The translations under genes and the position numbers were made by a program. 64,000 nucleotides of DNA, from positions 480,001 through 544,000 of the forward strand of contig CAWAWS010000007.1 of the NCBI GenBank assembly GCA_963785725.1. The letters run 5' to 3'. The DNA comes from an uncultured delta proteobacterium (lineage in GTDB: Bacteria; Myxococcota_A; Polyangia; Palsa-1104). Each line of letters begins with the position of its first letter. Position 1 is the first letter of the stretch. The notes under the pieces were generated by a model that saw only the letters and a program-made list of their open reading frames with translations, searched no databases and was not told where the DNA came from. Positions 1,841 through 59,625 of the stretch are shown here, piece after piece.

Positions 1841-1903
1841 TATTGTGCATTCGCATCATGTCATTATGCATTTGCACTACGTTATTATGCATTTGCATCA
1901 TGA
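1841..1903. repeat. 3 x 21-bp TGC-N4-GCA palindromic array
   Basis: TATTGTGCATTCGCATCATGT / CATTATGCATTTGCACTACGT / TATTATGCATTTGCATCATGA, just upstream of sctL. Confidence 0.95.
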
Positions 1904-1926
1904 GCGGCCGAACGATCATGGCCCGA

Positions 1927-2388
1927 TCACTTCTTGCCTTCGGTGTCGGCGGTGGTGATCTCGTTGTCGATCTCGTTCACGTCGTCGGCGCGGCGCGGGA
2001 ACTTCTTGGCCATGCGCGAGCCGACCGATTGGATGGCGCCGCTGATGCCTTCGCCGAAGGCGCCGCGCGCGAACGCCACCTTCATGCGCTGCACGGCGTC
2101 GGCCCAGAAGCCGGAGCCGACCTCTTCGTGGATGCCGACGTCACCGAGGATGCTGAACATGCGATCGCGCGTCGCGACATAGATGAGCACGGCGTTGCGC
2201 TCTTTGGTCTTCGTCAGGCCGAGCCGCGTGAACAGCTCGGTGCCGCGATGATAGGCGTCGCCGCCCGGGCAGCGCGCTTCGACGTGAACCTTGATCTCGC
2301 CCGAAGTGACCCGCTCGGCGGCGCGAATGGCGTCGACGATCTTCTGCTGGTCGGTCGGATGCAGCACCTTGTCGAGCATTCCCGGCAT
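1927..2388 (-). CDS. TPM domain protein (short form)
   Basis: IRAAERVTSGEIKVHVE...TKERNAVLIYVA...ILGDVGIHE...DVNEIDNEI; GAGG upstream of ATG 2388. Confidence 0.88.
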   Translation of the reverse strand: MPGMLDKVLHPTDQQKIVDAIRAAERVTSGEIKVHVEARCPGGDAYHRGTELFTRLGLTKTKERNAVLIYVATRDRMFSILGDVGIHEEVGSGFWADAVQRMKVAFARGAFGEGISGAIQSVGSRMAKKFPRRADDVNEIDNEITTADTEGKK

Positions 2389-2589
2389 TCGTTCCTCGAA
2401 GCCCCCAAAGATGACGCAAATCCTGACGAACGCTCGCTGCCGCCGTCGAAACGAGGCTAGGCGGACGACGTCGCGACGACCGAACTCCAACGTGACGCAG
2501 GCGCGGCAGGCCGTGCCGAGCCAGCGCTCGCGACGGGCGTTGGCGCGCGGCCGGCGCCGGCGAAGACGCGCGCGGCGAAGACGACGTGA

Positions 2590-3345
2590 CTACCAGCTGC
2601 CGCCACTGCCGCCGCCGCCGAACGAGCCGCCGCCGCCGCCCCAGCTGCTGCCGCCGCCGCTGCCGCCGCTCGACCAGCCGCCACCGCCGCCGGTGCCGAT
2701 GAACCAGCCGCCACCGCCGCCACCGCCGCCGCGACGACGGAGGATCTGCACGATCACGAAGATGGCGATGAAGATGAGGATCGGATAGGGGAAGCCGCCG
2801 CCGTTGCCGGAGCCTTGGCTGCGCGGCGCCGCCAGCGGCAGCTTGCCTTCTTCGTGCTGGTGGCCGCCCGTCGCCGTGTCGATCGCGGCCAAGCCGGCGC
2901 GCAGCCCGCCTTCGTAGTCGCCGGCCTTGAAGCGTGGCTCCATCAGCTCGGTGCGAATGCGGCCGGTGAGCGCGTCGGTGAGCTGCCCTTCGAGCCCGTA
3001 GCCGACGGCCATGAAGTCCTTGTGATCCTGAATGAACAGCGTGATGAGGACGCCGTCGCTGTTCTTCTTGGAGCCGATCTTCCAGGCCTCGGCGACCTGC
3101 ATGGTGAAGTCGAACAGCTCCTCGCCGTCGAGCGCCGGGAAGATGGCGACGGCGATCTGTCGCGTCGTGCCCAGCTCATACGACAACAGCTGCTGGTTGA
3201 GCCGCGCCACCGCGTCCGGCGTCAGCGCGTGCGCATAGTCGTTGACCGGCTGGGTCGGTCGCGGCGGCACCGTCAGCGCATGCGCCGCCGGCGACGCCGA
3301 CAGCCCAACGACCGCCACGCACGCCGCGACCACGAGCGCGCGCAT
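2590..3345 (-). CDS. TPM domain membrane protein (YgcG-like) with Gly-rich tail
   Basis: Signal peptide, VNDYAHAL, WKIGSKK..DGVLI, VGYGLEG, TM helix and GGGSFGGGGSGGSW end. Confidence 0.92.
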   Translation of the reverse strand: MRALVVAACVAVVGLSASPAAHALTVPPRPTQPVNDYAHALTPDAVARLNQQLLSYELGTTRQIAVAIFPALDGEELFDFTMQVAEAWKIGSKKNSDGVLITLFIQDHKDFMAVGYGLEGQLTDALTGRIRTELMEPRFKAGDYEGGLRAGLAAIDTATGGHQHEEGKLPLAAPRSQGSGNGGGFPYPILIFIAIFVIVQILRRRGGGGGGGGWFIGTGGGGGWSSGGSGGGSSWGGGGGSFGGGGSGGSW

Positions 3346-3434
3346 CTACGCCGCTCCCGTGGACGACGGCTGACGCGGCGACGGCGGCCGTGAGCCGCGC
3401 GCGCCGCGCGTCGCCGTCCGTCGCAGAAGCTGCT

Positions 3435-16763: not shown

Positions 16764-18351
<1,588 letters not shown>

Positions 18352-36761: not shown

Positions 36762-36851
36762 CATTGTGCAACTGCGTAATAAACAGTAATTATGCAGTTG
36801 CGTAATATCGTGGTGCATTTGCGCAATTACGTCGACGTGCGGCTGCGTCAT
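36762..36851. repeat. 4 TGC-N4-GC units upstream of metF
   Basis: TTGTGCAACTGCGTAAT, TTATGCAGTTGCGTAAT, TGGTGCATTTGCGCAAT, CGTGCGGCTGCGTCAT. Confidence 0.85.
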
Positions 36852-38641: not shown

Positions 38642-38903
38642 GTTGTGCGACTGCATAATAAAAATGTGCAACCGCGTTATAAATTCACAGCTGCAGCGAA
38701 ACAGAGGCCTCGACGTGGCTTCCGCTCAATCGCGAACGAGGTTTCGGGCGGTCAACGTGCAAAAGCAAAATATCGCGCAGAGCGTCATCGGCGATCGCGG
38801 CCGCGACTTGGTCGCGGGCGGACGACGCGGCGGCGGTCGCCCCGGCGTCGCAAATTGTGCGATCGCACCATGTTTGCGGTGCATTTGCACAATATGTTAG
38901 CCT
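38642..38903 (+). promoter_or_regulatory. Cluster of TGC-N4-GC units and putative promoter of the PhaR-like gene
   Basis: Units near 38646, 38667, 38758, 38858 and 38880; TTGCGG(38874)-N18-TAGCCT(38898) with an extended TG, and GGTGCATTTGCACAAT occupying the spacer. Confidence 0.65.
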
Positions 38904-41871: not shown

Positions 41872-43964
41872 TGGCTCTGGTCGTCCTTGACGTGAACGGT
41901 GATCTCTTGTTTGCCCTGCATGACGCCGCGCATGGGCACGACGAAGCGGGCGGCGCGCTTGAACGTGTCGGCGCGACGCGTGGAGGCGCCCGGCCGCAGC
42001 GTATCGATGACGGAGCCGGGCAGATCGGGGATGACGCTGCCGCGGAGGGTGACGCCTTCGTCGGGCGTCTCCAGGCCGACGACGATGGAGTCGGCGGGGT
42101 AGCCTTTGCGCAAGTTGTCGATGAGGCCGCCCAAGCTCTCGGGCGGCGCGACGTCGGGGTGCGCGAGGCTGCCGGCGGTGACGACGACCTTGACCGACTG
42201 CCCGGCGAGCGCGCGCGGCACTTCGAGCGGGATGGCGCGGACGTATTCCTGGCCGGCGTAGGGGCGCAAGGTGACGTAGAGGTTGGGGCGCGAGCCGGGC
42301 ACGAGGTCGTCGGAGTTGAGCGCCACGCCGACGATCTCCGAGACCTCCGCCTTGTAGTCGACGTCGACGTCGATGTCGATGCGGTCGAGGTTGGCGGGCG
42401 CGAACGGGTTGAAGAGGATGTCGCCGATCGCCTTCAAGCCCGACGCCGACGCCAGCGTGCGCGTCGAGACGCCGTCGGGCGAGTAGACGTGATCGATGAG
42501 CACGAGCGGTTTGTAGCCGCGCACGGCCAGGTTCGAGCGCACCGTGATGGTGGCGTCGGCGACGTCGCTGGCCGCGTTCTGCGCGGCGTTGGCGACGACG
42601 GTCGAGGCCAGCATCGGCGTCAGGAAGCGGTGGCGCACCACCTCGAAGTGGAAGTCCTGCTCGGCGCGACCGGGCCCGCCGACTTTGACGTGCACGGGGA
42701 TCATGTCGGCGCGCTGCGACGTGTCGCCGATGATGCCGGCCTGGCGATCTTGCACCAGCGAGCCGATCTCGTTCAGCGGCGACGCCATCTTGAACGACGA
42801 CGACAGCGCCGACATGAACGTGTGAATCTCGGCGGTGGCGATCGGCAGATAAATCTCGCCGACGTTGAACATCGGATGGCCGAAGGCGAGCACTTTGTCG
42901 CCTTCGACGGCGGTGACGGTGCCGGTGCCGGCGGCGCTGACGTCGCCGCGGATGAGCTGCACGGCGATGGATCCGCCGTTCTCGAACGCTTTCGGCCCGC
43001 TGCCGTCGCCGCTGCCGGAGCCGCCGGCCTGCAGCGGCACCATATGGAACGGCTCGAAGACGCGCGTCAGCTCGGCGAACGCGGCGGCGCCGACGCCGGC
43101 CAGCGACAGCGGCACCGACGCGCGCACCAGGCGCGGCTCGGCGCCTTCGGGCAGCGCCGGCAGCGGCAGGCGCGCCAACAGCGGCGAGCGATCGTTCACC
43201 GGATCGCGGCCGTCGCCGATGGCCTCCGCCAAGCTGCGCCGCGCCGACGCCGTAAATTGTGCATTCGCGTCATTACGTTGTGCGAATGCACCATCACGTT
43301 GTGCGATTGCATCATTATGTTGTGCGTTTGCACCAACTTCGCCACCGCGACGACGATATTGCGGATCATTGGCCGCTTCGGCGACGGGCGTGCTCGACCG
43401 GCCGCGCAGCGGGCGCTTCAGGTCCGCCATCATCGTCTCGATGGGCGTGACGCCGGCGATGGGATCCTTCGCGAAGTGCCAGCCATAGCTGAGCGCGCCG
43501 GCCAGGCGGCCTTCGAAGTAGATGGGCGAGCCCGACATGCCGGCGACGATGCCCGAGTGCAACAGGCGCGGATCGTCGGACTGCACGAGGATGATGTCCT
43601 GCTTGGGCAGGAAGTTGTGCAGCACGCTGATGACAGTGACGTCGAAGCGCTCGGGCTTCGTGCCTTTGAACACCGTCAGGCCGTAGCCTTTCATGCCGGC
43701 GCGGACTTCGGATAACGGCATGTAGTTGCCGTGGCGGACGGCGGCAGGCGTGACGATGGGCGCGTTGCCGCGCGCCGGCAGCGACCCGGGAGCGGCGGTC
43801 GTCGGCGACGTCGTGGGCGTGATGGTCATCGGAGCGCCGGTCGTCGCCGAAGCCGGGGCGACCGCGCTGCTCGTGTTCGGTGCGGCACCGGCGACGGAGG
43901 CGATCAGAGCCGCGGCTGCGACCGACGAGACAGGTAGCAGGCGAGCGGTCAGACGCAGGAACAT
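41868..43964 (-). CDS. SpoIVB-type (S55) peptidase domain protein with in-frame repeat insertion
   Basis: GMKGYGLTVFKG, GIVAGMSGSPIY, GTGTVT, LAFGHP; signal peptide from ATG 43964. Confidence 0.88.
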   Translation of the reverse strand: MFLRLTARLLPVSSVAAAALIASVAGAAPNTSSAVAPASATTGAPMTITPTTSPTTAAPGSLPARGNAPIVTPAAVRHGNYMPLSEVRAGMKGYGLTVFKGTKPERFDVTVISVLHNFLPKQDIILVQSDDPRLLHSGIVAGMSGSPIYFEGRLAGALSYGWHFAKDPIAGVTPIETMMADLKRPLRGRSSTPVAEAANDPQYRRRGGEVGANAQHNDAIAQRDGAFAQRNDANAQFTASARRSLAEAIGDGRDPVNDRSPLLARLPLPALPEGAEPRLVRASVPLSLAGVGAAAFAELTRVFEPFHMVPLQAGGSGSGDGSGPKAFENGGSIAVQLIRGDVSAAGTGTVTAVEGDKVLAFGHPMFNVGEIYLPIATAEIHTFMSALSSSFKMASPLNEIGSLVQDRQAGIIGDTSQRADMIPVHVKVGGPGRAEQDFHFEVVRHRFLTPMLASTVVANAAQNAASDVADATITVRSNLAVRGYKPLVLIDHVYSPDGVSTRTLASASGLKAIGDILFNPFAPANLDRIDIDVDVDYKAEVSEIVGVALNSDDLVPGSRPNLYVTLRPYAGQEYVRAIPLEVPRALAGQSVKVVVTAGSLAHPDVAPPESLGGLIDNLRKGYPADSIVVGLETPDEGVTLRGSVIPDLPGSVIDTLRPGASTRRADTFKRAARFVVPMRGVMQGKQEITVHVKDDQSQ
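43257..43340. repeat. 4 x 21-bp array inside the CDS
   Basis: TTGTGCATTCGCGTCATTACG / TTGTGCGAATGCACCATCACG / TTGTGCGATTGCATCATTATG / TTGTGCGTTTGCACCAACTTC. Confidence 0.95.
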
Positions 43965-44171: not shown

Positions 44172-44237
44172 TTGTTGTGCATTTGCATAATAAATGATGC
44201 GAGCGCACAATTCACTGCTGATGTGCGTTCGCATCAC
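44172..44237. repeat. 3 TGC-N4-GCA units in a divergent intergenic region
   Basis: TTGTGCATTTGCATAAT, TGATGCGAGCGCACAAT, ATGTGCGTTCGCATCA. Confidence 0.85.
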
Positions 44238-44471
44238 GAATCCGGTGGCTCGGTGGAGGTCGCCTCAGGCGCGGACGGTAGGCGGCCTGAGAAAAAGCGC
44301 GCGCGCGAGAATATTGGACAGTGGTTCCCGTTATTTGAGTGTGCGGTTGGACAACTGAGGGGTCGCGCCGACATCAGGAGAACGTGGGAATTCGGTCACT
44401 TGTGATGGCGTCGACACGGTAGGGCTCCGTAGCGATTGACGGCGCGCGCCGTGCGGGGATACCCTTCGCGC

Positions 44472-44912
44472 ATGAAGTCTTTGTGGTGCGCCGGCATCAT
44501 GTTTTGTTGTGCAGTTGCGTCATCAGGCTGTGGCGGAAGCTCGGCGACGTCGTCCACCAAGGACGTCATCGGCAGCTACATGGTCATGATCACGAACACC
44601 GACGTCAATCGCACCGACTCCGACGTCATGACGGTAGCGCCGGGCAGCGGCGGCGACATCTTGCTGACGTTCGTCGCCGGCATCACGACCGATATTTCCG
44701 GCCCGAACCCGGACGGGTTGCGCGGGACGATCAAAGCGACCGAAGTGACGGTGGCGTCGCAGCCGGCGCACGTCGATCACTCGACGGGCAACCTCGACGG
44801 GACGATCAGCGGAACGGGCACGTTCAAGACTGACGGCGTCGACCTGAAGATGATGTTCGAGCCGGCCGGCGGCACGGCGATGTCGTTCGAGATCACCGGC
44901 ACCCACCTGTAA
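44472..44912 (+). CDS. Hypothetical lipoprotein
   Basis: MKSLWCAGIMFCCAVASSGC then a Ser/Thr linker and a beta-rich domain with host codon bias. Confidence 0.75.
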   Translation: MKSLWCAGIMFCCAVASSGCGGSSATSSTKDVIGSYMVMITNTDVNRTDSDVMTVAPGSGGDILLTFVAGITTDISGPNPDGLRGTIKATEVTVASQPAHVDHSTGNLDGTISGTGTFKTDGVDLKMMFEPAGGTAMSFEITGTHL

Positions 44913-45269: not shown

Positions 45270-46064
45270 TTACGGCACGAGGACGGTGCCGACGCTGCCG
45301 GGCTCTCCGACGGCGCGCGCGACGTCGCGCGAGACGATGTAGATGGCGCGCGCGCCGGCTTCCAACGCCGCGAACGACTCCTCCAGCTTCGGGATCATTC
45401 CGCCCGACACCGTGCCGTCGGCGATGGCGCGCTTGCCGTCGGCGACGGTCAGCCGCGGGATGCGCGACGCCGGGTCCTGAATGTCGCGCAAGACGCCCGG
45501 CGCGCCGGTGACGAGCACGAGCGCGTCCGCCCGCAGCGCGCCGGCGAGCTGGTTGGCGACGATGTCGGCGTTGATGTTGTAGACCGCGCCGTCGCTGCCG
45601 TGGCCGAGGCAGGCCACGACCGGCACGTAGCCATCGTCGAGAACGCGCGCCAGCAGCGCCAGATCGAAGTCGTCGACATCGCCGACGTGACCGAAGTCGA
45701 TCGGATCGGGCCCGCAGCCGGAAACGACCCGTGGCGGCCTCTTGTGCGCTCGCACAATATCGTGGAGCCCCACCGGCTTCAGCCCCGCGGCACGCAGCTG
45801 CGTGCACAGGTCGACGTTCACCTGGCCGGCGATGACCATCTTCATGACGTCGAGCGTGGCGGCGTCGGTGATGCGGCGGCCGCCGACGATGCGCGACTCG
45901 ATGCCCAGCCTCTTCGACAGCGCCGTCGCTTGCGGGCCGCCGCCGTGGCTGACGACGACGCGGCGGCCGCCGTCGACGAGCGTGCGCAGGTCGCGCGCCA
46001 GCGGCGCCATCTCCGCGCCGCCGACGACCTCGCCGCCGAGTTTGACGACGATCGTTTCACTCAT
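45270..46064 (-). CDS. argB: Acetylglutamate kinase
   Basis: VVKLGG, HGGGPQ, GRRITD, YNINAD, GGMIPKL. Confidence 0.95.
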   Translation of the reverse strand: MSETIVVKLGGEVVGGAEMAPLARDLRTLVDGGRRVVVSHGGGPQATALSKRLGIESRIVGGRRITDAATLDVMKMVIAGQVNVDLCTQLRAAGLKPVGLHDIVRAHKRPPRVVSGCGPDPIDFGHVGDVDDFDLALLARVLDDGYVPVVACLGHGSDGAVYNINADIVANQLAGALRADALVLVTGAPGVLRDIQDPASRIPRLTVADGKRAIADGTVSGGMIPKLEESFAALEAGARAIYIVSRDVARAVGEPGSVGTVLVP

Positions 46065-46086: not shown

Positions 46087-46149
46087 ATGGTGCAGTTGCA
46101 TAATTATATGGTGCAAATGCGTAATTGCATGATGCAAATGCACAATTAC
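46087..46149. repeat. 3 x 21-bp array between argC and argB
   Basis: ATGGTGCAGTTGCATAATTAT / ATGGTGCAAATGCGTAATTGC / ATGATGCAAATGCACAATTAC; overlaps the argC TAA. Confidence 0.95.
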
Positions 46150-47210
46150 GGCCACGAGCCGGGATCTTCGAGCGTCAGCTTCTCGTCGAGGCCGAGCATG
46201 ATGTTCATGCTCTGGATGGCCTGGCCGGCGCCGCCCTTGATGAGGTTGTCGAGGACCGAGAAACAGCTGACGAGCCGCTTGCCAGTGACCGGATCGGGCG
46301 TGTCGGAGACGGCGAAGCCGACCTCCACGAAGTTCGAGCCGGAGACGGCGGCGACCTCGGGCAGCCGCTTTTTCGGCACGCGCACGAACGGCTCGCCGCG
46401 GTAGGTCTCGGCGAACGCCGAGGCGATGGCGTCCTTGGTCGCCTTGCCGTCGACGTGGGCGAAGCAGGTGGCGAAGATGCCGCGCGGCAGCGGCGCCGAG
46501 ATCGGCACGAAGCGCAGGAGCAGGTTGCGCGCGCCCGCCGACGCCAGCGTCTCGGTGATCTCGGGGATGTGCTGGTGCTCGAGCGGCTTGTAGGTGCGCA
46601 GGTTGACCGCGCGCGTCGGATGGTGCGTCGTCGCCGTCGGCACGACGCCCGCGCCCGACGAGCCGGTGATGCCGACGACTTCGACGCCGCCTTCGAGCAG
46701 CCCGGCCTTGGCCAGCGGCAAGAGGCCGAGCTCGATGGTCGTCGCGAAACAGCCGGGCGAAGCGACGTATTTTGCCGTCTTGATGCGCTCGCGGTTGAGC
46801 TCGGGCAGTCCGTAGACGAAGGTGCCGTCGAGGAGGTGCGCCGACGGATGCGCCTGCCCGTAATATTTCTGGTAGGCGGCGGCGTCGCGCAGGCGGAAAT
46901 CGCCCGACAGATCGACGATGCGCGCGCCCGTCTTCATGATGTCGGGGACTTTGTGCGCGCTCACTTTGTGGGGCAGCCCGAGGAGCACGATATCCATCCC
47001 GCGCGCGGCCTCTTCGGGCGGCAGCTCTTCGAACTTCAGCTCGCTCAGCCCTTCGAGGTTGGGATGCGCGTCGGCGAGCGGCTCACCGACGAAGTCGACG
47101 GACGCGACGCGCTCGAGGCTCACTTGCGGGTGCAAGAGGAGGCGGCGGATCAGCTCGTTGCCGCCGTAGCCGGATCCGCCGATGATGGCGGCCTTGAATC
47201 GCTTGGTCAT
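46146..47210 (-). CDS. argC: N-acetyl-gamma-glutamyl-phosphate reductase
   Basis: GGSGYGG, VDLSGDFRL, YGLPE, ASPGCFAT, HQHIPEI, DNLIKGGAGQA. Confidence 0.96.
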   Translation of the reverse strand: MTKRFKAAIIGGSGYGGNELIRRLLLHPQVSLERVASVDFVGEPLADAHPNLEGLSELKFEELPPEEAARGMDIVLLGLPHKVSAHKVPDIMKTGARIVDLSGDFRLRDAAAYQKYYGQAHPSAHLLDGTFVYGLPELNRERIKTAKYVASPGCFATTIELGLLPLAKAGLLEGGVEVVGITGSSGAGVVPTATTHHPTRAVNLRTYKPLEHQHIPEITETLASAGARNLLLRFVPISAPLPRGIFATCFAHVDGKATKDAIASAFAETYRGEPFVRVPKKRLPEVAAVSGSNFVEVGFAVSDTPDPVTGKRLVSCFSVLDNLIKGGAGQAIQSMNIMLGLDEKLTLEDPGSWP

Positions 47211-47262
47211 GCGGAAGATCTAGCGGGATCGGCTCGCGATGTCCATCGACCGGCCGGATTCT

Positions 47263-47354
47263 ATGGTGCAAATGCATCATGACGCGGGCGCGGCTCCGTG
47301 GCGTCGCTGGAGATATTGTGCATATGCGCATTATTGTTGTGCATATGCATCATG
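47263..47354. repeat. 3 TGC-N4-GC units between argC and the sulfatase gene
   Basis: ATGGTGCAAATGCATCAT, then TTGTGCATATGCGCATT and TTGTGCATATGCATCAT 21 bp apart. Confidence 0.9.
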
Positions 47355-49363: not shown

Positions 49364-49942
49364 ATGCGAATCTGCGTCTTCTGCGGCGCCAACGCCGGCC
49401 GCTCGCCCGCTTACGCCGCCGCCGCCCGCGACCTCGGCGCGCTCCTCGCCAGCCGCGGCATCGGCCTCGTCTACGGCGGCGGCAACGTCGGCCTCATGGG
49501 CATCGTCGCCGACGCCGCGCTCGCCGGCGGCGGCGAAGTCATCGGCGTCATTCCGGGCGCGCTCGTCGAGCGCGAGCTGGCGCATCGCGGTCTCACCGAG
49601 CTGCGCATCACGCCCTCGATGCACGAACGCAAGCAGCTCATGCACGACCTCTCCGACGCCTTCATCGCGCTGCCCGGCGGCTTCGGCACGCTCGACGAGC
49701 TCTTCGAAACGCTGACCTGGGCCCAGCTCGGCGTACACGACAAACCGATGGGCCTGCTCGACGTCGAAGGCTTCTGGCAACCGCTCGTGCGCTTCATCGA
49801 AGTGCAGGTCGCCGCCGAGCTCGTCCGCCCGCAGTACGCCGCGATGCTGCTGCACGCCAATTCCGCGGTCGACCTACTGACAGCGTTCGAATCCTATCGC
49901 CCGCCGACGCTCACGAAATGGGCCACCCGCGACCAAACGTGA
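49364..49942 (+). CDS. LOG family nucleotide phosphoribohydrolase
   Basis: ICVFCG, VYGGGNVGLMG, MHERK, PGGFGTLDE. Confidence 0.94.
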   Translation: MRICVFCGANAGRSPAYAAAARDLGALLASRGIGLVYGGGNVGLMGIVADAALAGGGEVIGVIPGALVERELAHRGLTELRITPSMHERKQLMHDLSDAFIALPGGFGTLDELFETLTWAQLGVHDKPMGLLDVEGFWQPLVRFIEVQVAAELVRPQYAAMLLHANSAVDLLTAFESYRPPTLTKWATRDQT

Positions 49943-50168
49943 TGGTGCATCTGCACAATCGAATGTGCGGCTCTAAAATCGCACCTGCAGAATTGGTCTT
50001 GGCAGCGGTATCGAATCTATTGTTTCGACGAGTCCGTTCGACCAGACGCGTCTTGCCGAACGGACTCGCTACTTCACGAGCGCCACTGCGCCTTCATCGG
50101 GCTCCGAGCTCGAATCGCTCCGGCAGCGAGTGACCTGCCGGGGCGCCGCGTCGTGCCGGGACGGCCTT

Positions 50169-51210
50169 TCAGGCGTGCGCCACAGCGCCGTGCTTCTCCG
50201 TCCCGGCTTTCCCGGCCTCGCTAGCCGCCCGATACCACGCCACCACATCCCGCGCGGTCTCGTCGAACGGCCGGAACCGAACGTCGAGCTCGCGCTCCGC
50301 CCGCGCCGAGGTTGCGCGGGCGGGGTTGTTCATCGACTTCAGCGCCATCCGAGTCATCAACGCCGGCCGGCCGGAGATGCGTGACCATGCTTCGCTCGCG
50401 CAGGCGAACGCGAATGCGAGGGAATACGGTAGGTCGCATCCGCGGCCCGGGGATCCCGCTCACTCGTTCGAGCGCCGACAGCATCTCGGCGATCGACATC
50501 GTCGGCCCCGCGATCAGAAAACGCGCGCCGTGCTTCGCGCGTTCGGCGGCGCGAATCATTCCCTTCGCGACGTCGCGCGCGTCGACCACGTTCGCCCCGC
50601 CCGGCGGGATCGCGGGCACTTTGCGGGCGAGAAAGTCCTGCGCGAGCTGCCCCGAGCCGGTCGGAGCCGCGTCGCCCGGGCCCCACATCCAGCCGGGAAG
50701 AATCTCGATGATCGCCATCCCTCTCTTCGGCGCGAACGCATGGATTTGCGCGTCGCCGTCCACCTTGCTCCGGAAGTACAGATTCTCTCGCGCGATCGGA
50801 GGGGCCTGCGTGTCCTCGTCCCCGGGCGAGCCGTCGGGCTTCGAGCCGATCGTTCCACTCGAGCTCGTGTGCACGAACGTGCGAACGCCCACATCATCCG
50901 CGAGCGCCATGAGCGCCAGAGTGCCGCGGACGTTCACCGCCGCGAGCGCCTCGGCGTGGTCGCCCGGCTGGTAATACTCGCGGAAGTACGCCGCGGTGTG
51001 GAACACCGCGTCGCACCCGCCGAGAGCCGGCGCGAAGGCTTCCGGGCTCCGCATGTCTCCGACGAGCCACGTAGCCCCCGTACCGTCGAGCAGGCGGCGC
51101 GCCTTGGCGTCCGACCGCACGAGCCCGACGACCTCGTGTCCCTCGGCCCGAAGCGCGCGCACGAGATTATTTCCGAGCAGCCCGGTCGCTCCAGTCACGA
51201 ATGCTTTCAT
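50169..51210 (-). CDS. NAD-dependent epimerase/dehydratase (frameshift near 50433)
   Basis: TGATGLLG, HTAA, YFRSK, VDARDVA; the C-terminus continues in ORF 50169..50360. Confidence 0.85.
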
Positions 51211-51269
51211 ACGGGTTAATATGTGACGGATCCTTCGGGTTTCCATTCGCATTCCAAGCGAGAGGACCT

Positions 51270-51932
51270 ATGCATTCGTTTCAGCCGAGAAAGAAGCCGA
51301 TCCAGGAGCGCTCGAAGGCCACGGTCGAGGCCATTCTGGAGGGGACGATTCGGGTCTTGCTCGACGAGGGGTTCGAGACGCTGACCACGACGCGCGTGGC
51401 GAAGGTCGCCGGAGTGGGCGTCGGGACGCTCTACCAGTACTTCCCGGCGAAGGAGTCGCTCCTGTTCGCCCTCCTCGAGCGCGAAATGACGACGCTCGAG
51501 ACGGAGCTGCTCGGGACGCTCGTGGCGACGGAGAGCCAATCGCTCGAAGCGCGCATTACCGCGACGATCGACGCTCTCGTGCGCCACAAGAAGGCGCACG
51601 CCGAGCTCAGCGTGGTGCTGCAGGCCCACATGCCGCGCTTCAATGGGATCCGGGTCGTCCGCGCGACAGTGCGCCGGATCGTCTCCGCCTTCGCCGTCGT
51701 GATCCGTCCGAGCTTGGCAGCGCGGATGGACGACGCAGAAGTGCAGCTCGTCGCGATGATGATCGCAACCGCAGTCCAGGGGGCGATCGACGGCGCCCTC
51801 AATCTCTCCGCGGCGACCCTCCGGCGCCCAGCGTTTCGGGACGCGCTCGTTCACCTCGTCCTCGGCTATCTCCGCGAGTCGGGGGCGAAGCTTCCGCCCC
51901 GGCTCCGCACGCGCGTCCGTCTCCGGTCGTGA
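51270..51932 (+). CDS. TetR/AcrR family regulator
   Basis: PRKKPIQERS...TTRVAKVAGVGVGTLYQYFPAKE; divergent from the epimerase. Confidence 0.93.
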   Translation: MHSFQPRKKPIQERSKATVEAILEGTIRVLLDEGFETLTTTRVAKVAGVGVGTLYQYFPAKESLLFALLEREMTTLETELLGTLVATESQSLEARITATIDALVRHKKAHAELSVVLQAHMPRFNGIRVVRATVRRIVSAFAVVIRPSLAARMDDAEVQLVAMMIATAVQGAIDGALNLSAATLRRPAFRDALVHLVLGYLRESGAKLPPRLRTRVRLRS

Positions 51933-52248
51933 AAGCGACCGACCGACGTGACCATGCCCGTCCTTGAACGTTGTAGCCGTCGACAAGACGCGTAAGTTGG
52001 GTTTCCGGCCAAGGTCGGTGGAACTCCGGCGCTGACGCTCGGCAAGACGCGCGTCGTCGAACGGATTCGTTTCGACGGCTTGGAAGGGCAGAGCAAACAG
52101 CGACTGCGGGCATGACGCATCGGATCAATGTCACTCTGACCCACTTTGCGTCCGATGGACCGCTGGCGACGATGACGATCGATAACGGTGAACCAAGGCT
52201 CAGTCGATATCGTTACGACGCCTGGATTTACCTACGTACTGCGCTCGC

Positions 52249-52701
52249 TCAGATGAAGCGGCTGAGCCAGAGATCGACCGCCTCTTTCGGCATTGCGCCC
52301 ACTTGCTGGTCGACCTCGAGCGGACCGCGAAACAGCTTCAACGCCGGTATCGACTGAATTCGATATCGTCCCGCGATCTTCTGGTTCTCGTCGACGTTTA
52401 CTTTGACGATCTTGAGCTTGCCGCCCCGTTCGCGCGCCACCGCTTCCAACACCGGCCCCACCGCGCGACACGGTCCGCACCACGGCGCCCAAAAATCGAC
52501 GAGCACCGGAATCGGCGACTGCTCGACGACATCGCGCCAAGTCGCGTCGGTGCCGACGACGGGAGCGCGCGGAAAAACCTTCTGTTTACAGCGGCCACAC
52601 GTCGGATCGTCGAGCCGCCGCACAAATGGAAAGCGATTGAGTGACCCGCATTGAGCACACGCAACCTGCACTTTGTCTTCGTTGTTAGTCGCTGTTTCCA
52701 C
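52249..52701 (-). CDS. trxC: Thioredoxin 2
   Basis: CAQC...CGRC zinc finger plus WCGPC. Confidence 0.92.
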   Translation of the reverse strand: METATNNEDKVQVACAQCGSLNRFPFVRRLDDPTCGRCKQKVFPRAPVVGTDATWRDVVEQSPIPVLVDFWAPWCGPCRAVGPVLEAVARERGGKLKIVKVNVDENQKIAGRYRIQSIPALKLFRGPLEVDQQVGAMPKEAVDLWLSRFI

Positions 52702-52777
52702 GGCGCTAAAATAAGTCTTCACGCGCGCTTCGCAAGAGCCCGTTGCCGACGCCAGGGCGCGGGCGTATTGTTGAATC

Positions 52778-53407
52778 ATGCCGTACCGTGGCGAGACCGA
52801 GCCGCGGATCGCTTGTACCGCGCACAATTCGGCGGAGGCGGCGTCGAGCTGCACTCGCTGTCATGTGGCTCTCTGCGATCCTTGCACGCTGTACTTCTCG
52901 GCGGATCCTTACTGTCGCCGCTGTGTGGCCGGAGCACGGCGCGCATGGGTGGCACGAATCGCCGGTGGCGTCACAGCCGTCTTATTGACGCTGGCCATCG
53001 GCTCGGGCGTGATGCTGGCGGCGATTCCGTCGCATTCGCGCATCGCGGCAAATCCGGTGACGCTCGTGAGCCGGCCGTATCCCGAGAATTGCGCGCCCGC
53101 CGATCGTTGGCTCGCGGCCGCTAAGCGTGATGTGACCTTCAGTCGCTATCACACGGCGCTGAATCATTTGTCGTTGTCGCAGCGCGATTGCGAGCCTAGC
53201 CCGCAGCGCGATGAGTTGTACGCGCTCGCTTACGATGGCGCGGGCGATCGGCTGTCGGCGATCGCGGCCGCGTCGCGATGGGTCGATTCCAGCCACGGCG
53301 GTCGCGACGCGTGTACGCTGTTCGCGACGCTGCTGGAGGTCAACGCCGGCGGCGCGAACGCCGGGCAGGACGCGCGCTGCTTGGACGCGCTCAGCGTCCA
53401 ACCGTAA
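52778..53407 (+). CDS. B-box-like zinc finger membrane protein
   Basis: CxxH...CxxC...CxxC...CxxC, one TM helix, helical C-terminal part. Confidence 0.7.
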   Translation: MPYRGETEPRIACTAHNSAEAASSCTRCHVALCDPCTLYFSADPYCRRCVAGARRAWVARIAGGVTAVLLTLAIGSGVMLAAIPSHSRIAANPVTLVSRPYPENCAPADRWLAAAKRDVTFSRYHTALNHLSLSQRDCEPSPQRDELYALAYDGAGDRLSAIAAASRWVDSSHGGRDACTLFATLLEVNAGGANAGQDARCLDALSVQP

Positions 53408-53706
53408 GCGCGCCGCGGCGTTCGCGCGCAGTAGTTCCTTAAGGGCTTCAATCACCCGCAATCACCTTCATTGAATGGCGCAGTGTTTAGCGGTCTCGAT
53501 GCGCGCGGCCGCAAATCCGCTACGCCATTCGTCGCCATATCCTCAACAGATAATCGGCGACAGACTTAAGGTCTGGCGAATTTATGCGGCTTATTGCCAC
53601 GAGCGCGCCGCGACGTCGGGCCCGACACGACCGTCGCGCCTGCTCGGCGCGTCGCCGCGAACGGCACGAGCCGAGGCGCGCCTGCTTCGTTGCGGCCTGA
53701 CGATGG

Positions 53707-54642
53707 CTACGCGACGAAGGCCGCGTCCGAGGCCGACTGCGGAATTGCCAGCGCTTCGTCGTAGCCCGGCGTGACCACTCGCGCCGACGGCGCGTGCAGG
53801 CGCGCCTCGGCGACGAATCCGTCGAGATCGATCCCCGGCAAGAGGTGCACACCGCCCTCGAGCGGCGCGAAGAACGCGTCATGATGCGTTGGCACAATTA
53901 ACTGCGGGCGCAGCGCGCCGCACAGTCGCGCCAAGTAGTCGCGCGTCGCGCGCCGGCCGGCCAGACCGACGAGCAGCACGTCGGCGCGGGCGCCCGCGAG
54001 CGCGGCATCGATGAGGTCCGCGGAGCCGTTGTGATAGAGGCGCAGGCCGTTCGCTTCGACGAGGATGCCATAGGCGCCGCCCATGCGATAGCGCCACGCC
54101 GGCGCCGGCAGCGACGGCGGCGTGGTCACCTCGCCCGGAAACGGCACGCGATGCAGCACGACGCGACCGTGAAGGCTGGGCACGAAGCGCACGGTCGCCG
54201 CGCCAATCGCGAGGCTGCCGCCGTCGCCGCCGATCTCCCGCAGCTGCATCGCCGGCACGCCGGCGGCGCGCGCGAAGGCGCAGCTGCTGCGGCTGCCGAC
54301 GAAGAGCGCGCCCGTGGCCAGCGCGATCGCCGGCGCGTCGAGCAGGTGATCGAAGTGGCTGTGGCCGCACAGCACGGCGTCGACGCGAGGCGGCAGGTGC
54401 GCGCGAATCGCCGTCGCGTCCGGCTGCAGCGGCCGCAGCAGCTGCATCGCCGACGGCCGCGTCAGAAACGGGTCGATGAGCAGCGTCGTGCCGCCCACCT
54501 CGATGACATGGCCGGCCGTCCCCAACCAGCGCACGCGCATCGCCTCGTCGCCGCTGGCGCGCGTCGTCGGACGAAGCTCCGCGCGCGGCTTCCAACGCGG
54601 GAAGAGCCGGCGATAAAGCCAGCCGTTATGGTGCGATCGCAT
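53707..54642 (-). CDS. MBL-fold metallo-hydrolase (UlaG-like)
   Basis: RWLGTAG, IDPF, GHSHFDH, PTHHD; start uncertain (the ATG lies within a repeat unit). Confidence 0.88.
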   Translation of the reverse strand: MRSHHNGWLYRRLFPRWKPRAELRPTTRASGDEAMRVRWLGTAGHVIEVGGTTLLIDPFLTRPSAMQLLRPLQPDATAIRAHLPPRVDAVLCGHSHFDHLLDAPAIALATGALFVGSRSSCAFARAAGVPAMQLREIGGDGGSLAIGAATVRFVPSLHGRVVLHRVPFPGEVTTPPSLPAPAWRYRMGGAYGILVEANGLRLYHNGSADLIDAALAGARADVLLVGLAGRRATRDYLARLCGALRPQLIVPTHHDAFFAPLEGGVHLLPGIDLDGFVAEARLHAPSARVVTPGYDEALAIPQSASDAAFVA

Positions 54643-54721
54643 TAGACGCCCATGCTAACGCAACCGAACCCGAGCATCGCCACCTCCTGACGCAGACGCA
54701 CGACGCGCTCGTGAAGAGCGT

Positions 54722-54784
54722 CATTTTGCAATTGCACCACGTATTTGTGCGTTTGCATAATGGTGTGGTGCGAATGCACAATAA
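54722..54784. repeat. 3 x 21-bp array
   Basis: TGC at 54727, 54748 and 54769: TTTTGCAATTGCACCA, TTGTGCGTTTGCATAA, TGGTGCGAATGCACAA. Confidence 0.92.
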
Positions 54785-54836
54785 GATTGGGGAAGCTGGC
54801 GGCCCGCCTAACGGTGGCACCGCGAGATCGAACGCG

Positions 54837-55499
54837 TTAGAAGCGGAAGCCGATCGTGGCGAGCAGGTCGAGGTCGACGGCGTCGAACTTCGGCGTCAGC
54901 AGCACCAGGTTGGCCTCGGTGATCGACAGATCGTGCGACGGTGCGATCGGGAAGCCGGCATAGAGGCCGACCATGATGTGGCGGTGGATGTTGAAGTTGA
55001 CGCCGAAGCCGGGCTCGAAGGTGAACGCCGTCGAGCTGCGCGTCGTGCTGGCGGTGAAGCCGGCGGCGCTGCCGCTGTATTCGGCGGTGATGTAGTCGAC
55101 GCCGAGCGCCAAGCGCACGTAGAACGAGCCGATGCCGAAGGGCACGATGAAGCGGCCGCCGGCCAGCGCGCGGATGCGGTTGGCTTTGACGTCGATGTGG
55201 TTGTCGGCGTAGGTGCCGTCGTCGCTGTTGACGGGGATGTAGTCGAACTGCAGCTCGGGCGCGATGCCCAAATTGTGCGCGAGGTAGATGATGACGCCGG
55301 CGCGCAGCGAGAGCTTGAACGACGCATCGGCGAACTTGTTGTAGTTGCTGTCGGCGATCGGAATGGCGACGCCGCTGGCGAACTCGAGCATGAAGGCCGT
55401 GCGCGGCGGCGCTTCGTAGGCCTGCGTTGTGCGAGCGCACAATAAAGCGGAAGTGGCGAAGATCAAGGCGAGCAACGTCTTGTTCAGTCTCATCGTCAT
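54837..55499 (-). CDS. Outer-membrane beta-barrel domain protein
   Basis: Signal peptide, alternating beta strands, C-terminal IGFRF. Confidence 0.8.
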   Translation of the reverse strand: MTMRLNKTLLALIFATSALLCARTTQAYEAPPRTAFMLEFASGVAIPIADSNYNKFADASFKLSLRAGVIIYLAHNLGIAPELQFDYIPVNSDDGTYADNHIDVKANRIRALAGGRFIVPFGIGSFYVRLALGVDYITAEYSGSAAGFTASTTRSSTAFTFEPGFGVNFNIHRHIMVGLYAGFPIAPSHDLSITEANLVLLTPKFDAVDLDLLATIGFRF

Positions 55500-55730
55500 G
55501 AGGGCCCCATTGGGTCGATTCGTTACGTGGATGGTTTACTTGGGGACAGCGGCGAACGGCTTTTACCGACGACCTCGGCGGTCGCCAAACCGTAGACCAC
55601 CTCGGTGTAGCCGTCGGCGAGCTCGACTGCGCGGGCGGCGCCGTTGGCCGAAAGCTCGATGCGCGGCATGGCGCACGAATCATGGGCACGCCGGCCGCGG
55701 AATTACAAGCTCCGGGACGGTAACTTCGTC

Positions 55731-55787
55731 GTAGTGCAACTGCACAATGACGTGATGCGTTTGCATCATTTTCGCGCGCAAACGCGA
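55731..55787. repeat. 3 x 21-bp array
   Basis: TAGTGCAACTGCACAA, TGATGCGTTTGCATCA, GCGCGCAAACGCGA at exact 21-bp spacing. Confidence 0.85.
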
Positions 55788-56042
55788 GCCGCTCAGCGCG
55801 TGCGCGGCCGGCTCGCGCGCGCCGCCGGTGGCACGACGCCGATTCGGTGTGCGACGCCGGCTCGTCTCACTGCAATTCGTGGCCGAGGCAAGCTCGCCGA
55901 GACATACAGCATTCGCGAATCAATGTTGATCAACCCGTCGAACGAAGCTGCGCTGGCCGGATGGAGGATCATCGGCATTTGCGTGCGTGCAGTGAACGCG
56001 AGTCGATGCGCGGTGATTCGTCGTGCCTGACGTCGGGCGCGG

Positions 56043-57242
56043 CTAAGTGCCGGGCGCGTAAATCGCGATCTCGCTGTTGCCGGCGCCCGTGAAGGCGCCG
56101 TCGGCGTCGACGACGCGCAGCCGCAAGAGCTCGGCGACGATCGAGAGCGGTATGATCTGATACTGGGTCGCGGCCACCGTCGTGACCGGCGTCCACGTCA
56201 TCAGGTCATTCGAGCTTTCGATCGCGATCTTCTGCGTCGCCCCCGATATCGTCACGTCATAGAGAACCAGCATCGCCATGGGATGCTGGAAGCCGATATC
56301 GATCGCGATCCAATTGTTCTGCGTCGGCGGCGTGCAAGTTTGCCCCGTCGGACAGGCCGGCGCCGCGACCGGCACGAACTTGGTGCCCATATTCCCGTCG
56401 GTGAGCGGACAGGGGCGGGCAATCAGCGCCGGCCCGGTCGCCGTCTGCACATAACAATCGCCGGTACGCGAAAGCGGATTCAAGAAGCGACTGGCATAAG
56501 CCTGCTGCGACGAATACCAGGTGATGCCGAAGGTCGTGCCGGCGCTATTGTCCGTCCGTTGCGCGGTCGCCGACCAGCTGCCGGCGAAATCCTGCGTCGC
56601 GTGGCGATCGACGACGACGTTCGCCGCCGCCTGCGCGTCCTGCAGCCACACCAGATTGCCGAGCGTGTCGCGAATGGTGACGCGATAATCGTCGGCCGCG
56701 GCGCCGCCGATCGTCGACTGCAACGGCGGCCACGTAAAGTGCGGGTCGCCGCTCGCGTCGTCTTCGCTGCCCAACGCCGTCCATTGGCGCAGCGCTGGAA
56801 TCTCTAAATTGGGCGTCTGCACAATGAAGTCGGCGGCCACGGCGCAGTCGCCGACCGCCGGCGCCGGCTGCGCGGCACAGCTGGCGAACATCGTGAACGT
56901 GAGCGCCTCGTCGGTCGATCCTTGCGTGTCCGAGCCCTTGAGCGCGAAGTGATAGCTGCCGTCGCTGGCGGTGGTCGATTGTGCGAACGCGCTGCAGATG
57001 TCGAGCTGGCCGCCGAGGCAGGCCAAGCCGAGGCTGCCGATGGCCTCGAAGATCTGGCCCAGCGCCTCCAGCGGATCGGGATGGCGAATCAGCTTCGCCG
57101 TGACCGGCGGCGACGGCGCCCCGTTTTGCGTTTGCACAACTCCCGTGATGGTGACGCTCGAGCTTGGCTCCAGCTTGCTGTGCGGCCCGAAGCAGCCGGC
57201 GGCGAGCGTCAGTCCCAGCGTAGCCAGGTGGCTGCTGCGCAT
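56043..57242 (-). CDS. Hypothetical Cys-rich lipoprotein
   Basis: GGGAGG RBS, LAAGC lipobox, C-terminal discoidin-like pattern (WIAIDIG...IESSNDLMTW...LRLR...SEIAIY). Confidence 0.78.
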   Translation of the reverse strand: MRSSHLATLGLTLAAGCFGPHSKLEPSSSVTITGVVQTQNGAPSPPVTAKLIRHPDPLEALGQIFEAIGSLGLACLGGQLDICSAFAQSTTASDGSYHFALKGSDTQGSTDEALTFTMFASCAAQPAPAVGDCAVAADFIVQTPNLEIPALRQWTALGSEDDASGDPHFTWPPLQSTIGGAAADDYRVTIRDTLGNLVWLQDAQAAANVVVDRHATQDFAGSWSATAQRTDNSAGTTFGITWYSSQQAYASRFLNPLSRTGDCYVQTATGPALIARPCPLTDGNMGTKFVPVAAPACPTGQTCTPPTQNNWIAIDIGFQHPMAMLVLYDVTISGATQKIAIESSNDLMTWTPVTTVAATQYQIIPLSIVAELLRLRVVDADGAFTGAGNSEIAIYAPGT

Positions 57243-57421
57243 ATGAACCTCCCGCCATAGAATATCATCACCGAGAAGATTGCGGCGCTCCGCCCTGTCG
57301 AGCGCGAATGGCGAGCTGTGCGGCTGAGTCAAAGGTCGCGGCGTCGGCGAAAATGTGCGCGCGCCCGGACTCGCAACGGCCGGGCTTACTTGCATTGCCA
57401 ATCGACGTTACAGTCACGTCA

Positions 57422-57892
57422 ATGGAGAGCGACACCGACCTCACCAAGTTCGATCGCGAATGGCCCGAATTTCTCAGAGAAGTGGGGACCGCGCTGCCCG
57501 GCGTCCAGCTTCTCTTCGGCTTTTTGCTGACCGCACCCTTTAGCGCCAACTTTCCGAAGCTCACGAACGATCTCAAGCACGTCTATTTCATCTGCTTCCT
57601 TTGCACGTCTGCGGCCTGCGCATTCCTCATCGCGCCCAGCGTCTACCATCGCCTGCATTGGCGGCGCGACGTCCGCGACAAAGAGCAGATGATCCGCACG
57701 TGCAATCGACTCGTCATCGCCGGCATCGGCATGCTCGCGGTCGCCATGACCACGGCGATCTACGTCATCGCGTCGGTCATGTCGAGCCACTCGGTCACGC
57801 TGTTGGCGACGGGAATCGCCGGCCTGACGTTCACCGGCCTGTGGTTCGCGCTGCCCTTGCTGCGCCGTCAAAGCGATCTCAAGCAGTCGTGA
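57422..57892 (+). CDS. DUF6328-like membrane protein
   Basis: DREW.EFLREV..ALPGVQLLFGFLLTAPF, LIAPSVYHR; about 4 TM helices. Confidence 0.8.
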   Translation: MESDTDLTKFDREWPEFLREVGTALPGVQLLFGFLLTAPFSANFPKLTNDLKHVYFICFLCTSAACAFLIAPSVYHRLHWRRDVRDKEQMIRTCNRLVIAGIGMLAVAMTTAIYVIASVMSSHSVTLLATGIAGLTFTGLWFALPLLRRQSDLKQS

Positions 57893-57963
57893 TGCATCCG
57901 CACATTTAGGTCGACCGATTGCCGTGGTGCGAATGCACAATTAATGTTGTGCATTTGCATCAG
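57890..57963. repeat. 3 TGC-N4-GCA units at a convergent junction
   Basis: TGATGCATCCGCACA (overlapping the stop codon), TGGTGCGAATGCACAA, TTGTGCATTTGCATCA. Confidence 0.85.
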
Positions 57964-58099
57964 GAATTGCTTCGCCATGGCGCGGACCGCGCGCCGTCGC
58001 GTCCTGCGAGCCACGCGCGCTCGCGACTGCAGGCGCGCGGCTTCGGCGGTCGCCGTGGCGATGACGTCGCCGGAATCGCGCGCCGCCGCGTGCTGCGAG

Positions 58100-59625
58100 T
58101 TAGGCGCGCACGCGCGACTGCACGCGCGCCGCTTCGGCGGCGGCCGTGGCGATGACCTCGCCGTAGTCGAGCCCCGTCGCCTCCGTCAGCCGGCCGCCGC
58201 GTACGAGGACGCGGCCGTCGACGAGCACGTCGCGCACGTCGCGGCTCTGGCACGCGTAGACCAGCGTCGAGACGGCATCGAACGACGGCGTCGCGTGCGC
58301 GCTGCGCGGGTCGACGACGATGATGTCCGCCCGCCGCCCGACCTCCAGCGCGCCGATCTCGTCCTCGAGGCCGAGCGCCGCCGCGCCGCCGCGCGTCGCC
58401 AGCTCCAACACCGTCGCCGCCGGCATCGCGGTCGCACCCGCGCGCGGCTTGTGCAGCAGCGCCGCCAGCCGCAGCTCGAGGAAGCCGTCGAGATTGTTGT
58501 TGCAAGGCGCGCCGTCGGCTCCGAGCGCGACGTGAATCCCCTGCGCCAGCATCTCGGGAATCGGCGCGATGCCGCTGGCCAGCTTCAAGTTCGACGACGG
58601 GCAGTGCACGACGTGCGTGCCCGCCGTCGCCGAGCAGCGCGCGCTCGGCGTCGGTCGCGTGGACGCAGTGCGCGAGCACCGCGCGCGGCCCGGCCAGCCC
58701 CAGCGACTCGAGGTAGGCGATGTTGTCGTCGCCGCGCTCGGCTCGCACGACGGCGATCTCGGCCTGCTGCTCCGACGCGTGCGTGTGCAGTCGCGCGCCG
58801 GCCGCGCACGCGCGCCGCGACCTCGCGCAGCAGCGCCTCGGTGCACGACAGGACGAAGCGCGGCGCGTACGCCCAGCGCAGCCGTCCGTCGGCCGCGCCG
58901 TGCCAGCGCTCGCGCAGGGCGTCGCTCTCGTCGAGCGAGCTGCGCGTCGTCTCGCGCAGTCGCGCCGGCACGCCGTCGCCGACGTCCATCATCGCCTTGC
59001 CGATCGTCGCGCGCAGCCCGGTCCCAGCGACGGCGTCACACAGCGCGTCGGTCTCGTGCACGGTGGCCATGTCGAGGATCGCCGTCGTGCCGCCGAGCAG
59101 CAGCTCGGCGCAGGCCAGCCGCGCCGCCGCGCGCATCGCCCGCTCGTCGAGCGCCGCTTCGTACGGCCACACGCGCTGCCGCAGCCACTCGAGCAGCGGC
59201 AGATCGTCGGCATGCCCGCGGCACAGCGTCTGGCACAGGTGCGTATGCGCCTGCACCAGCCCCGGCAAAACGATACAGCCGCGCGCGTCTATATATTGTG
59301 CGTCCGCATCACGATCCGTCGCCGCCCCGGCACCCGATTGTGCGTTTGCACCATGGTATTGTGCGTTTGCACCACCCGACGCGCGTTCCGCCCGGCTGAT
59401 TGTGCGTTTGCACCATGGTATTGTGCGTTTGCACCATCGCTCGGCGTCCGCGGCGGGCGATTGTGCATTTGCACCATGGCGTTGTGCAGTTGCATCATGG
59501 GCTGACGCGGCGGCGGGCTCGATGGAGACGATGCGGCCGTCTTCGATGACGACGTCGCCGACCATGACGCGGCGGGCGGCATCCATCGTGACGATGGTGC
59601 CGCCGGCAACGATCACGCGGCTCAT
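58100..59625 (-). CDS. Amidohydrolase, MTA/SAH or 5'-deoxyadenosine deaminase-like (frameshifts near 58800 and 58633; repeat insertion)
   Basis: PGLVQAHTH, LPLLEWL, GGTT, HTHASE, AHCV, HCPSSNLKLASG, GADGAPCNN spread over three frames. Confidence 0.88.
59293..59499. repeat. Compound array of three 39-bp doublets plus one single unit inside the CDS
   Basis: GATTGTGCGTTTGCACCATGGTATTGTGCGTTTGCACCA at 59336 and 59398, with a variant at 59459. Confidence 0.95.

Follow-up and report, generated by a model that had tools for sequence, protein, structure and literature searches.

Why does one short palindrome recur at some 20 loci in a single part of a bacterial chromosome, inside genes as well as between them, and which protein reads it? 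We address this question for a 64,000-nucleotide stretch (the window) of an uncultured delta proteobacterium of the Polyangia (lineage Palsa-1104), namely positions 480001-544000 of contig CAWAWS010000007.1 (C7) in assembly GCA_963785725.1. This genome (labelled G000; 8.9 Mb, 68% GC, 88% complete) was compared with related genomes (G001 etc.); genes were called with a codon-usage script and some starts are approximate. Judging from sequence, the palindrome is likely the operator of PhaR1, a regulator of the PhaR family (which governs bioplastic storage) whose gene stands among the copies, and the copies, spread over about 87 kb, are predicted to form a PhaR-coated domain round phaR1. We lean modestly towards this combined reading.

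Regional clustering of the palindrome

The site measures 18 bp, with a consensus of WTKRTGC-RNNY-GCAYMAW in a position weight matrix (PWM) trained on 52 window sites and applied at thresholds of 16 and 18 bits; the original prediction, made from the letters of the window alone, had put its length at about 16 bp. At 16 bits or more the window holds 57 matches, against a mean of 0.1 (maximum 2) in 60 third-order Markov resamples; this count is partly circular, as the training sites lie in the window, and the untrained 30 kb to the left serve as the non-circular test. The genome-wide scan that had been proposed as a check gave 78 matches of at least 18 bits: 56 in the window, 13 in the untrained left 30 kb and nine in the remaining 8.8 Mb. 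The enrichment over resampled sequence is borne out in the window, that of the left flank over the rest of the genome outside the training region, and the family is regional (69 of the 78 strong matches are confined to a single 87-kb stretch), which contradicts the earlier suggestion of a global or nucleoid-wide code. At 16 bits or more, 17 sites lie in C7:453-482.5 kb (the left satellite cluster, which spans C7:453.7-482 kb) and 54 in 514-540 kb; the stretches 482.5-514 kb and 540-600 kb have none.

All of the roughly 20 loci listed in the original prediction were found within about 3 bp of their predicted positions; the list had overlooked the sites at 53882, 55753 and 56809. The spacer is constant at four nucleotides in the region (20 matches with N4 and none with N2, N3, N5 or N6), as had been claimed, but the central four nucleotides follow R-N-N-Y and so do not vary freely. 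The central NN is A/T in 86% of cases in this genome versus 45% in congeners; the A/T excess ends 3 bp beyond the site, with no sign of a broad drift under the whole footprint. Independent soil runs yielded contigs of related strains that read through the arrays at 36764, 40669, 41775 and 44175 as well as the junction downstream of phaR1, so the arrays are not an assembly artefact, and array copy number seems to vary among these strains.

Helical spacing

Adjacent sites less than 70 bp apart in this genome are mostly 21 bp apart (27 of 42 pairs; another five are at 42 bp). Close pairs in eight relatives number 71, of which 66 are spaced at 21-23, 31-33 or 42-43 bp, or two, three and four helical turns; the ranges 25-30 and 34-41 bp are empty. 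The 21-bp peak noted earlier is therefore real here but lineage-specific, and since only 24 of the 71 spacings in relatives are divisible by 3, the period is not a codon effect, contrary to the proposal that it also stood for seven codons. Phase is kept across a decayed unit (41775/41796/41838), as had been noted.

The two halves of a site are complementary at 4.94 of 7 positions versus 5.23 of 7 for randomly paired halves (one perfect palindrome among 69). No stem is therefore maintained, and a hairpin is ruled out. Together with the helical spacing and with conservation of in-gene sites above their flanks (see below), halves that are no more complementary than chance favour same-face sites for a dimeric protein over a satellite or transposon, as had been proposed.

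PhaR1, the predicted binder

Amid the densest site cluster, at 38924..39535 on the + strand, lies a phaR-like gene (phaR1) whose product matches PF07879 with 61.7 bits (cut-off 25); the gene may instead start further upstream, which would add 18 residues (P0001, 221 a.a.). PhaR1 scores 69.8 bits against TIGR01848, below the cut-off of 109.45, so it is a divergent homolog rather than an equivalog, and it does not match PF05233. The protein consists of a basic tail at the N terminus, whose RGRP motif we take to be AT-hook-like, a PHB_acc_N DNA-binding domain (residues 56-113), a helical dimer region and a C-terminal helix. Its structure model reaches a predicted local distance difference test (pLDDT) score of 78 (single-sequence folding was poor, with pLDDT 42). 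Modelled in four copies, PhaR1 self-associates through residues 102-151 with a score of 0.58 versus 0.02 for the best control; among proteins of solved structure, 20 of 30 homodimers attained the mark, as did one of 23 monomers, and the runs show at least 56% contact agreement and pLDDT of at least 65. We found no sequence homolog of PhaR1 in PDB, and the better model had no clear counterpart in fold searches (best E 0.47 with Foldseek, best Z 5.3 with VIA).

Four sites stand directly upstream of phaR1 (38642..38893; at 38643, 38664, 38855 and 38877) and, from their position, are likely autoregulatory. The half-sites are identical to those of the Sinorhizobium meliloti PhaR sites and of the Herbaspirillum seropedicae PhbF motif, with a 4-bp core here versus 3 bp there. 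The palindrome had been said to belong to no recognisable family; its half-site is in fact the known PhaR operator half-site, and a PhaR-family gene stands among the copies. The PhaR site of Rhodobacter sphaeroides reportedly has an N3-4 spacer. Excerpts of the papers on these regulators give WNWD2NYGCRNYGCRNH2WNW for S. meliloti PhaR (3-bp core; sites bound in electrophoretic mobility shift assays in Table 3, PMC12542648), TG[N]TGC[N]3GCAA for PhbF (PMC3206438, which quotes N3 for R. sphaeroides) and GCN3GC for Bradyrhizobium diazoefficiens PhaR, described there as mainly a tetramer that prefers close tandem sites (PMC10888616). An earlier N4 precedent among the classic PhaR footprints (C. 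necator, P. denitrificans, R. sphaeroides) is possible. We regard PhaR1 as very probably the protein that binds the palindrome.

Linkage of sites and phaR1 across genomes

A search with the protein turned up no relatives among genome or metagenome contigs, and comparisons were made instead with genome searches and pattern scans. Sites lie within 1.5 kb of 10 out of 11 PhaR1-clade genes and of none of 19 other phaR-like loci, including those of a ubiquitous paralog clade (30 loci in all). Among 251 genomes of the class, eight have at least seven exact matches and all eight, which fall in two sister families, have a PhaR1 ortholog; the other genomes have at most four. G002 and G007, both about half complete, have sites and no ortholog match. 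A DNA-only search of public contigs for a pair of sites 21 bp apart returned 90 loci from redundant samples, 17 with pha-cluster genes and 16 with genes of the neighbourhood; 12 out of 15 distinct genome loci belong to Polyangia, Myxococcales or delta-proteobacterial records. We found no literature on operator swarms (our term for such site clusters) or on myxobacterial PhaR sites; the search covered papers outside subscription, without supplements.

In relatives, the PhaR1 gene is found within a cluster encoding two small proteins (one phasin-like by size only, with no family match), two class III PhaC-like proteins, an acyl-CoA ligase, a PhaB-like reductase, a hydrolase, lipoproteins and an outer-membrane protein. 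PhaR1 is linked to such polyhydroxyalkanoate (PHA) synthase-like genes in G001, G003, G004, G008, G010, G017, G021 and others, but not in this genome; the PhaC-like proteins of relatives score 268-275 bits, below the TIGR01836 cut-off. No synthase was detected here, either at the contiguous locus or elsewhere in the 88% complete genome (best 24-26% identity; TIGR01836 29.5 bits), and the genes that flank the pha cluster in G003 and G004 directly abut phaR1. The phaC-phaB block of relatives stands on the side of phaR1 where the upstream sites are. Around phaR1, the sites of G010, G017 and G021 mostly fall at gene junctions of the cluster; within the genus, sites cover unrelated genes over about 50 kb. 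The right swarm boundary, near an amidohydrolase gene, is common to G000, G002, G003 and G004, and satellite sites in or near mfd recur at shifting positions in G001, G003 and G004, but not in G002 or G010. A PHA-like cluster in which two class III PhaC-like genes flank phaR (L055:16868-20000 and L056:1-7579; G004:C145) is conserved in several Polyangia genomes.

Sites within and between genes

Out of 71 sites, 24 are inside coding sequence, eight in the first 60 nt of a gene, seven over a start or stop codon and six between convergent genes; the other 26 occupy tandem or divergent spacers. Sites deep within a gene and those that separate convergent genes make 30 together. The longer in-gene arrays are in-frame insertions missing from orthologs. 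Five scored sites occupy a 64-residue insertion (34706..34850) in a metallophosphoesterase gene (33701-35734, + strand), absent in the G004 ortholog, with a GC content at third codon positions (GC3) of 0.42 versus 0.86; four sites at 21-bp spacing (43256..43337) lie in an insertion in a SpoIVB/S55 peptidase gene (41868-43964, - strand), absent in G003 and G004 (GC3 0.23 versus 0.91); and seven sites at 59295..59499 lie in insertions totalling about 64 residues in the amidohydrolase gene at the right swarm boundary, absent in the G004 ortholog. Overall, GC3 is 0.23-0.71 in arrays versus 0.82-0.93 elsewhere in the same genes. Single sites arise by substitution without indels (e.g. the site at 45741..45758 in an argB-like kinase gene, kept in G000, G003 and G004).

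We made 77 pairwise comparisons of in-gene sites, which are not independent of each other. The site is shared in 34 (90% identity versus 75% in flanks) and unshared in 43, of which the 27 gap-free ones show 53% identity versus 67% in flanks. Given the conservation of shared sites and the many unshared ones, sites are kept once present, and gained and lost inside a fixed region.

The remaining sites of the window are as follows. Three intergenic sites 21 bp apart (1842..1902) form the right end of the left satellite cluster. Within 35746..36828 are a single site between convergent genes (35747) and three sites upstream of metF (36764-36811). A beta-propeller gene (39688-41871, - strand) has two internal sites and three in the 5' signal-peptide region (40668..41855); one internal site is shared with G001 and G004, and the second was gained with a short insertion. 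At 44174..44524, three sites lie between genes and others where a small lipoprotein gene begins; at 46087..47354 there are three sites between argC and argB plus three upstream of argC. Singles, pairs and a triplet are scattered over 49942..57964 (49943, 53882, 54629, 54724-54766, 55427, 55732-55753, 56809, 57124 and 57890-57947), at stop codons, at start codons, within genes and between convergent genes.

A second swarm

A second motif, TGGTTNAACCA (the FadR-type box), has 137 copies in this genome, of which 136 fall in four clusters: C7:357-389 kb (55 copies), C7:421-435 kb (23), contig C33 (32) and contig C39 (26), with extents of C7:356795-434700, C33:40549-63757 and C39:304428-315876. Thirty pairs of boxes are 21 bp apart. 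A GntR-FCD gene (C7:367773-368570) lies inside the largest cluster and starts within a box, as it does in G003 and G004. This GntR gene is 150 kb away on the same contig, and the two families never overlap; the main cluster and satellite of the FadR-type swarm are about 32 kb apart, as in the PhaR swarm. Swarming thus belongs to these bacteria as such rather than just to PhaR, and any reading based on granules only becomes weaker.

Other arrays were seen in the same genome. GTGATA...TATCAC arrays lie beside a TetR-like gene (by sequence) and 6-7 kb away from it (C39:656272-664140), and again in 26-bp tandems at C33:208300-209500, possibly a small third swarm. Seven palindromes resembling GCCAAC-N3-GTTGGC, out of 12 genome matches, are spread over 20 kb, mostly within genes (C26:151576-171960). 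A regularly spaced repeat array at C17:17892-22329 is possibly a CRISPR.

Comparison with known systems

The ParB sites parS and the MatP sites matS are known cases of many palindromic sites in one chromosome region, in and between genes irrespective of function. The swarm clusters regionally irrespective of gene function, as in MatP- or Rok-like systems; it differs from parS/ParB and matS/MatP in sequence, protein fold and its phased tandem arrays. With the PhaR/AniA/PhbF operators of alpha- and betaproteobacteria it shares the TGC/GCA core, A/T-rich arms, asymmetric half-site pairs, tandem copies and the placing of sites both upstream of phaR and within the pha cluster. Here, by contrast, the spacer has 4 bp, the protein has an AT-hook-like tail, the system is retained without phaC, and sites are regional and inside unrelated coding sequence rather than in promoters across the genome. 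It is thus a known operator family in altered form (N4 spacer, divergent PhaR with basic tail), and the novel part is the swarm arrangement.

According to the excerpted source, Bacillus subtilis Rok is a repressor with clustered binding and proposed DNA bridging (PMC11841835); it binds A/T-rich DNA loosely at several loci, whereas in our case the repressor is a metabolic one, its specific palindrome surrounds its own gene, and bridging is a prediction. PhaM (C. necator) and PhaF (P. putida) are PHA-associated granule-nucleoid linkers with basic DNA-binding tails; PhaR1 shares the basic tail, but PhaM and PhaF bind through histone-like tails, and the excerpt describes no site array for them (PMC9049629). 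Engineered decoy sites in excess can delay, lower or sharpen a regulator's response, as excerpted from PMC8599769; the array here is natural and regional. By analogy, Rok clusters and decoy titration would be the nearest precedents for a hub or sink of the kind proposed below.

Proposed mechanism and alternative explanations

A PhaR1 dimer would read one 18-bp site, with its AT-hook-like tail on the A/T flank, and PhaR1 tetramers, by analogy with other PhaRs, would take pairs of sites two, three or four turns apart and bridge distant ones. The system may have started as repression of a pha operon from operators placed where genes adjoin, the arrangement that prevails in G010, G017 and G021; in this genus, operators would then have spread into adjacent genes because sites near the hub would be cooperatively occupied. 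Regional confinement is hard to achieve for a freely diffusing repressor, so neighbouring sites presumably must help one another. The domain would keep PhaR at its locus as a sink, tightening and sharpening repression, a role that would not depend on the polymer and could have outlasted the loss of phaC here. We give slightly less than an even chance to such a cooperative hub or sink, that is, a local protein-coated domain that retains PhaR at the locus and sharpens repression; a local chromosome-organising role is plausible.

Several observations weigh against the PhaR1-coated domain. Support for the PhaR1 clade is weak (81/60; 92/83 with G006) and the PhaR1 of this genome is on a long branch (1.23), which could reflect relaxed function. 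Two genomes have an ortholog and no exact matches (G006; and G013, which has 17 one-mismatch sites versus four for the control), and 57 of the 90 loci from the blind search have no link to the pha region. The PhaR motifs characterised in the three papers have a 3-bp core, and a 4-bp spacer alters the geometry of the half-sites; the PhaR1 model gives a dimer interface only and no tetramer. A 32-kb site-free gap divides the domain. Of the 71 sites, 39 touch intergenic DNA or a gene end in a region that is just 15% intergenic, and the outlying sites of relatives are regulon-like, at FabH-like, acyl-CoA ligase and efflux genes. Finally, conservation of bound sites cannot distinguish selection from shielding against mutation.

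Some alternatives concern the nature of the repeat or its reader. Sites in unrelated genes, their turnover, insertions of up to 64 residues and helical spacing show that the palindrome is neither parS, nor a hairpin, nor a global nucleoid code. Three canonical parS, whose motif is unrelated to the palindrome, lie at C19:123.7 kb, 9 kb from dnaA at C19:114 kb (C19:114222-123792), with parAB on a separate contig (C6:332-334 kb); a dif pattern gave no matches, and GC skew is too weak for placing the terminus. A mobile or RNA-level repeat, i.e. a repetitive extragenic palindrome (REP), a miniature inverted-repeat transposable element (MITE), an insert like a Rickettsia palindromic element (RPE) or a hairpin, would suit the in-frame insertions and the palindromic shape. 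It is largely refuted already and we regard it as extremely improbable: there is no pairing stem with covariation, there are no common termini, Rfam and ARAGORN found no match in the window, halves pair worse than at random, single sites appear without indels, and the spacing is helical. It is also very unlikely that another protein reads the motif, the candidates being a second PhaR-domain paralog (C7:384157-384744, no pha context seen), an RHH-like protein at C7:460686 and a TetR at 51270. The paralog does score higher on PF07879 (97.6 bits) and the RHH-like gene is inside the satellite cluster, but the paralog clade is found in genomes with zero or one site, none beside the gene, and no sites stand near the RHH-like ortholog in G002, G003 and G004. 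The paralog is widespread, and a third, short PhaR-domain clade has an RGRP tail; besides the C7 gene, loci L041, L044, L047, L050 and L052 represent these two groups.

Other alternatives accept PhaR1 as the binder and differ in what the swarm does. In an extended ordinary regulon, each site would repress or roadblock the adjacent gene, co-regulated genes being gathered near phaR. Many genes of relatives do start inside a site (N-termini MMRLHN and MMQLH), and the intergenic enrichment and the outlying sites at acyl-metabolism genes point the same way; sites in argB, mfd, peptidase, phosphatase and EamA transporter genes and between convergent genes, the absence of the site from the ortholog in more than half of the non-independent in-gene comparisons, and arrays of 4-7 sites inserted in protein linkers in a single lineage make this explanation unlikely. 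The swarm could instead tether nascent PHA granules to the pha locus, so that daughter cells would inherit the granules along with the chromosome, as a sequence-specific counterpart of PhaM and PhaF. PhaR binds both DNA and granules, PhaM and PhaF connect granules with the nucleoid (excerpt of PMC9049629), the swarm of relatives is centred on a phaC-phaR-phaC-phaB cluster, and the layout is parS-like. Yet the longest tandem arrays that we saw are in this genome, where no synthase is detectable, the FadR-type swarm has no granule link, and in the textbook model granule binding takes PhaR off DNA, so we consider such a granule centromere unlikely too. We are a little more sceptical of a neutral ratchet, in which bound sites would be shielded from GC-ward change and duplicated by slippage at roadblocks, with no benefit. 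Two unrelated repressor boxes have expanded together here, both with a 21-bp unit and, for PhaR, despite the loss of phaC, and the A/T-rich site centre and seemingly strain-variable copy number would fit; but the A/T excess stops close to the site, new single sites require several clustered substitutions including amino-acid changes, and regional confinement still demands cooperative binding.

Other features of the region

A FliH-like gene and an adjoining FliI-like ATPase gene (by sequence) are found at 1-1827 of the window, with no other secretion genes nearby. Around a satellite array (C7:456664-464178) are genes for a lipase, two ArsA-like ATPases, a biotin carrier and the RHH-like protein (56 a.a.). 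An apparent CoaD-like and aminotransferase fusion at 6987-8654, where G004 differs, and apparent frameshifts relative to G004 in a sigma-54 activator gene (16764-18095), the amidohydrolase gene (about 58600) and mfd (C7:465598-469161) may be assembly errors.

Implications

The analysis gives the repeat a name, as a first predicted PhaR operator for myxobacteria, with a changed spacer, and points to an overlooked PHA cluster of Polyangia with two PhaC-like genes. Around the genes of two unrelated repressors, phased operators have come to occupy tens of kilobases, and the cost has been amino-acid changes and 60-residue insertions. If the sites are coated as predicted, one repressor would coat a chromosome region, beyond switching single promoters. 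It is conceivable, though we hold it doubtful, that uncultured Polyangia programme chromosome domains with ordinary repressors (PhaR, FadR-type GntR), as exclusive, sequence-defined coated territories that in PHA producers are a granule anchor too. If true, this would be a bacterial form of site-programmed chromatin, and the PhaR territory of PHA producers would be centromere-like for granules. Should the swarms be protein-coated domains, metabolic repressors can turn into locus-specific chromosome organisers, which would bear on the origin of nucleoid-structuring systems from transcription factors and on DNA anchors for storage granules.

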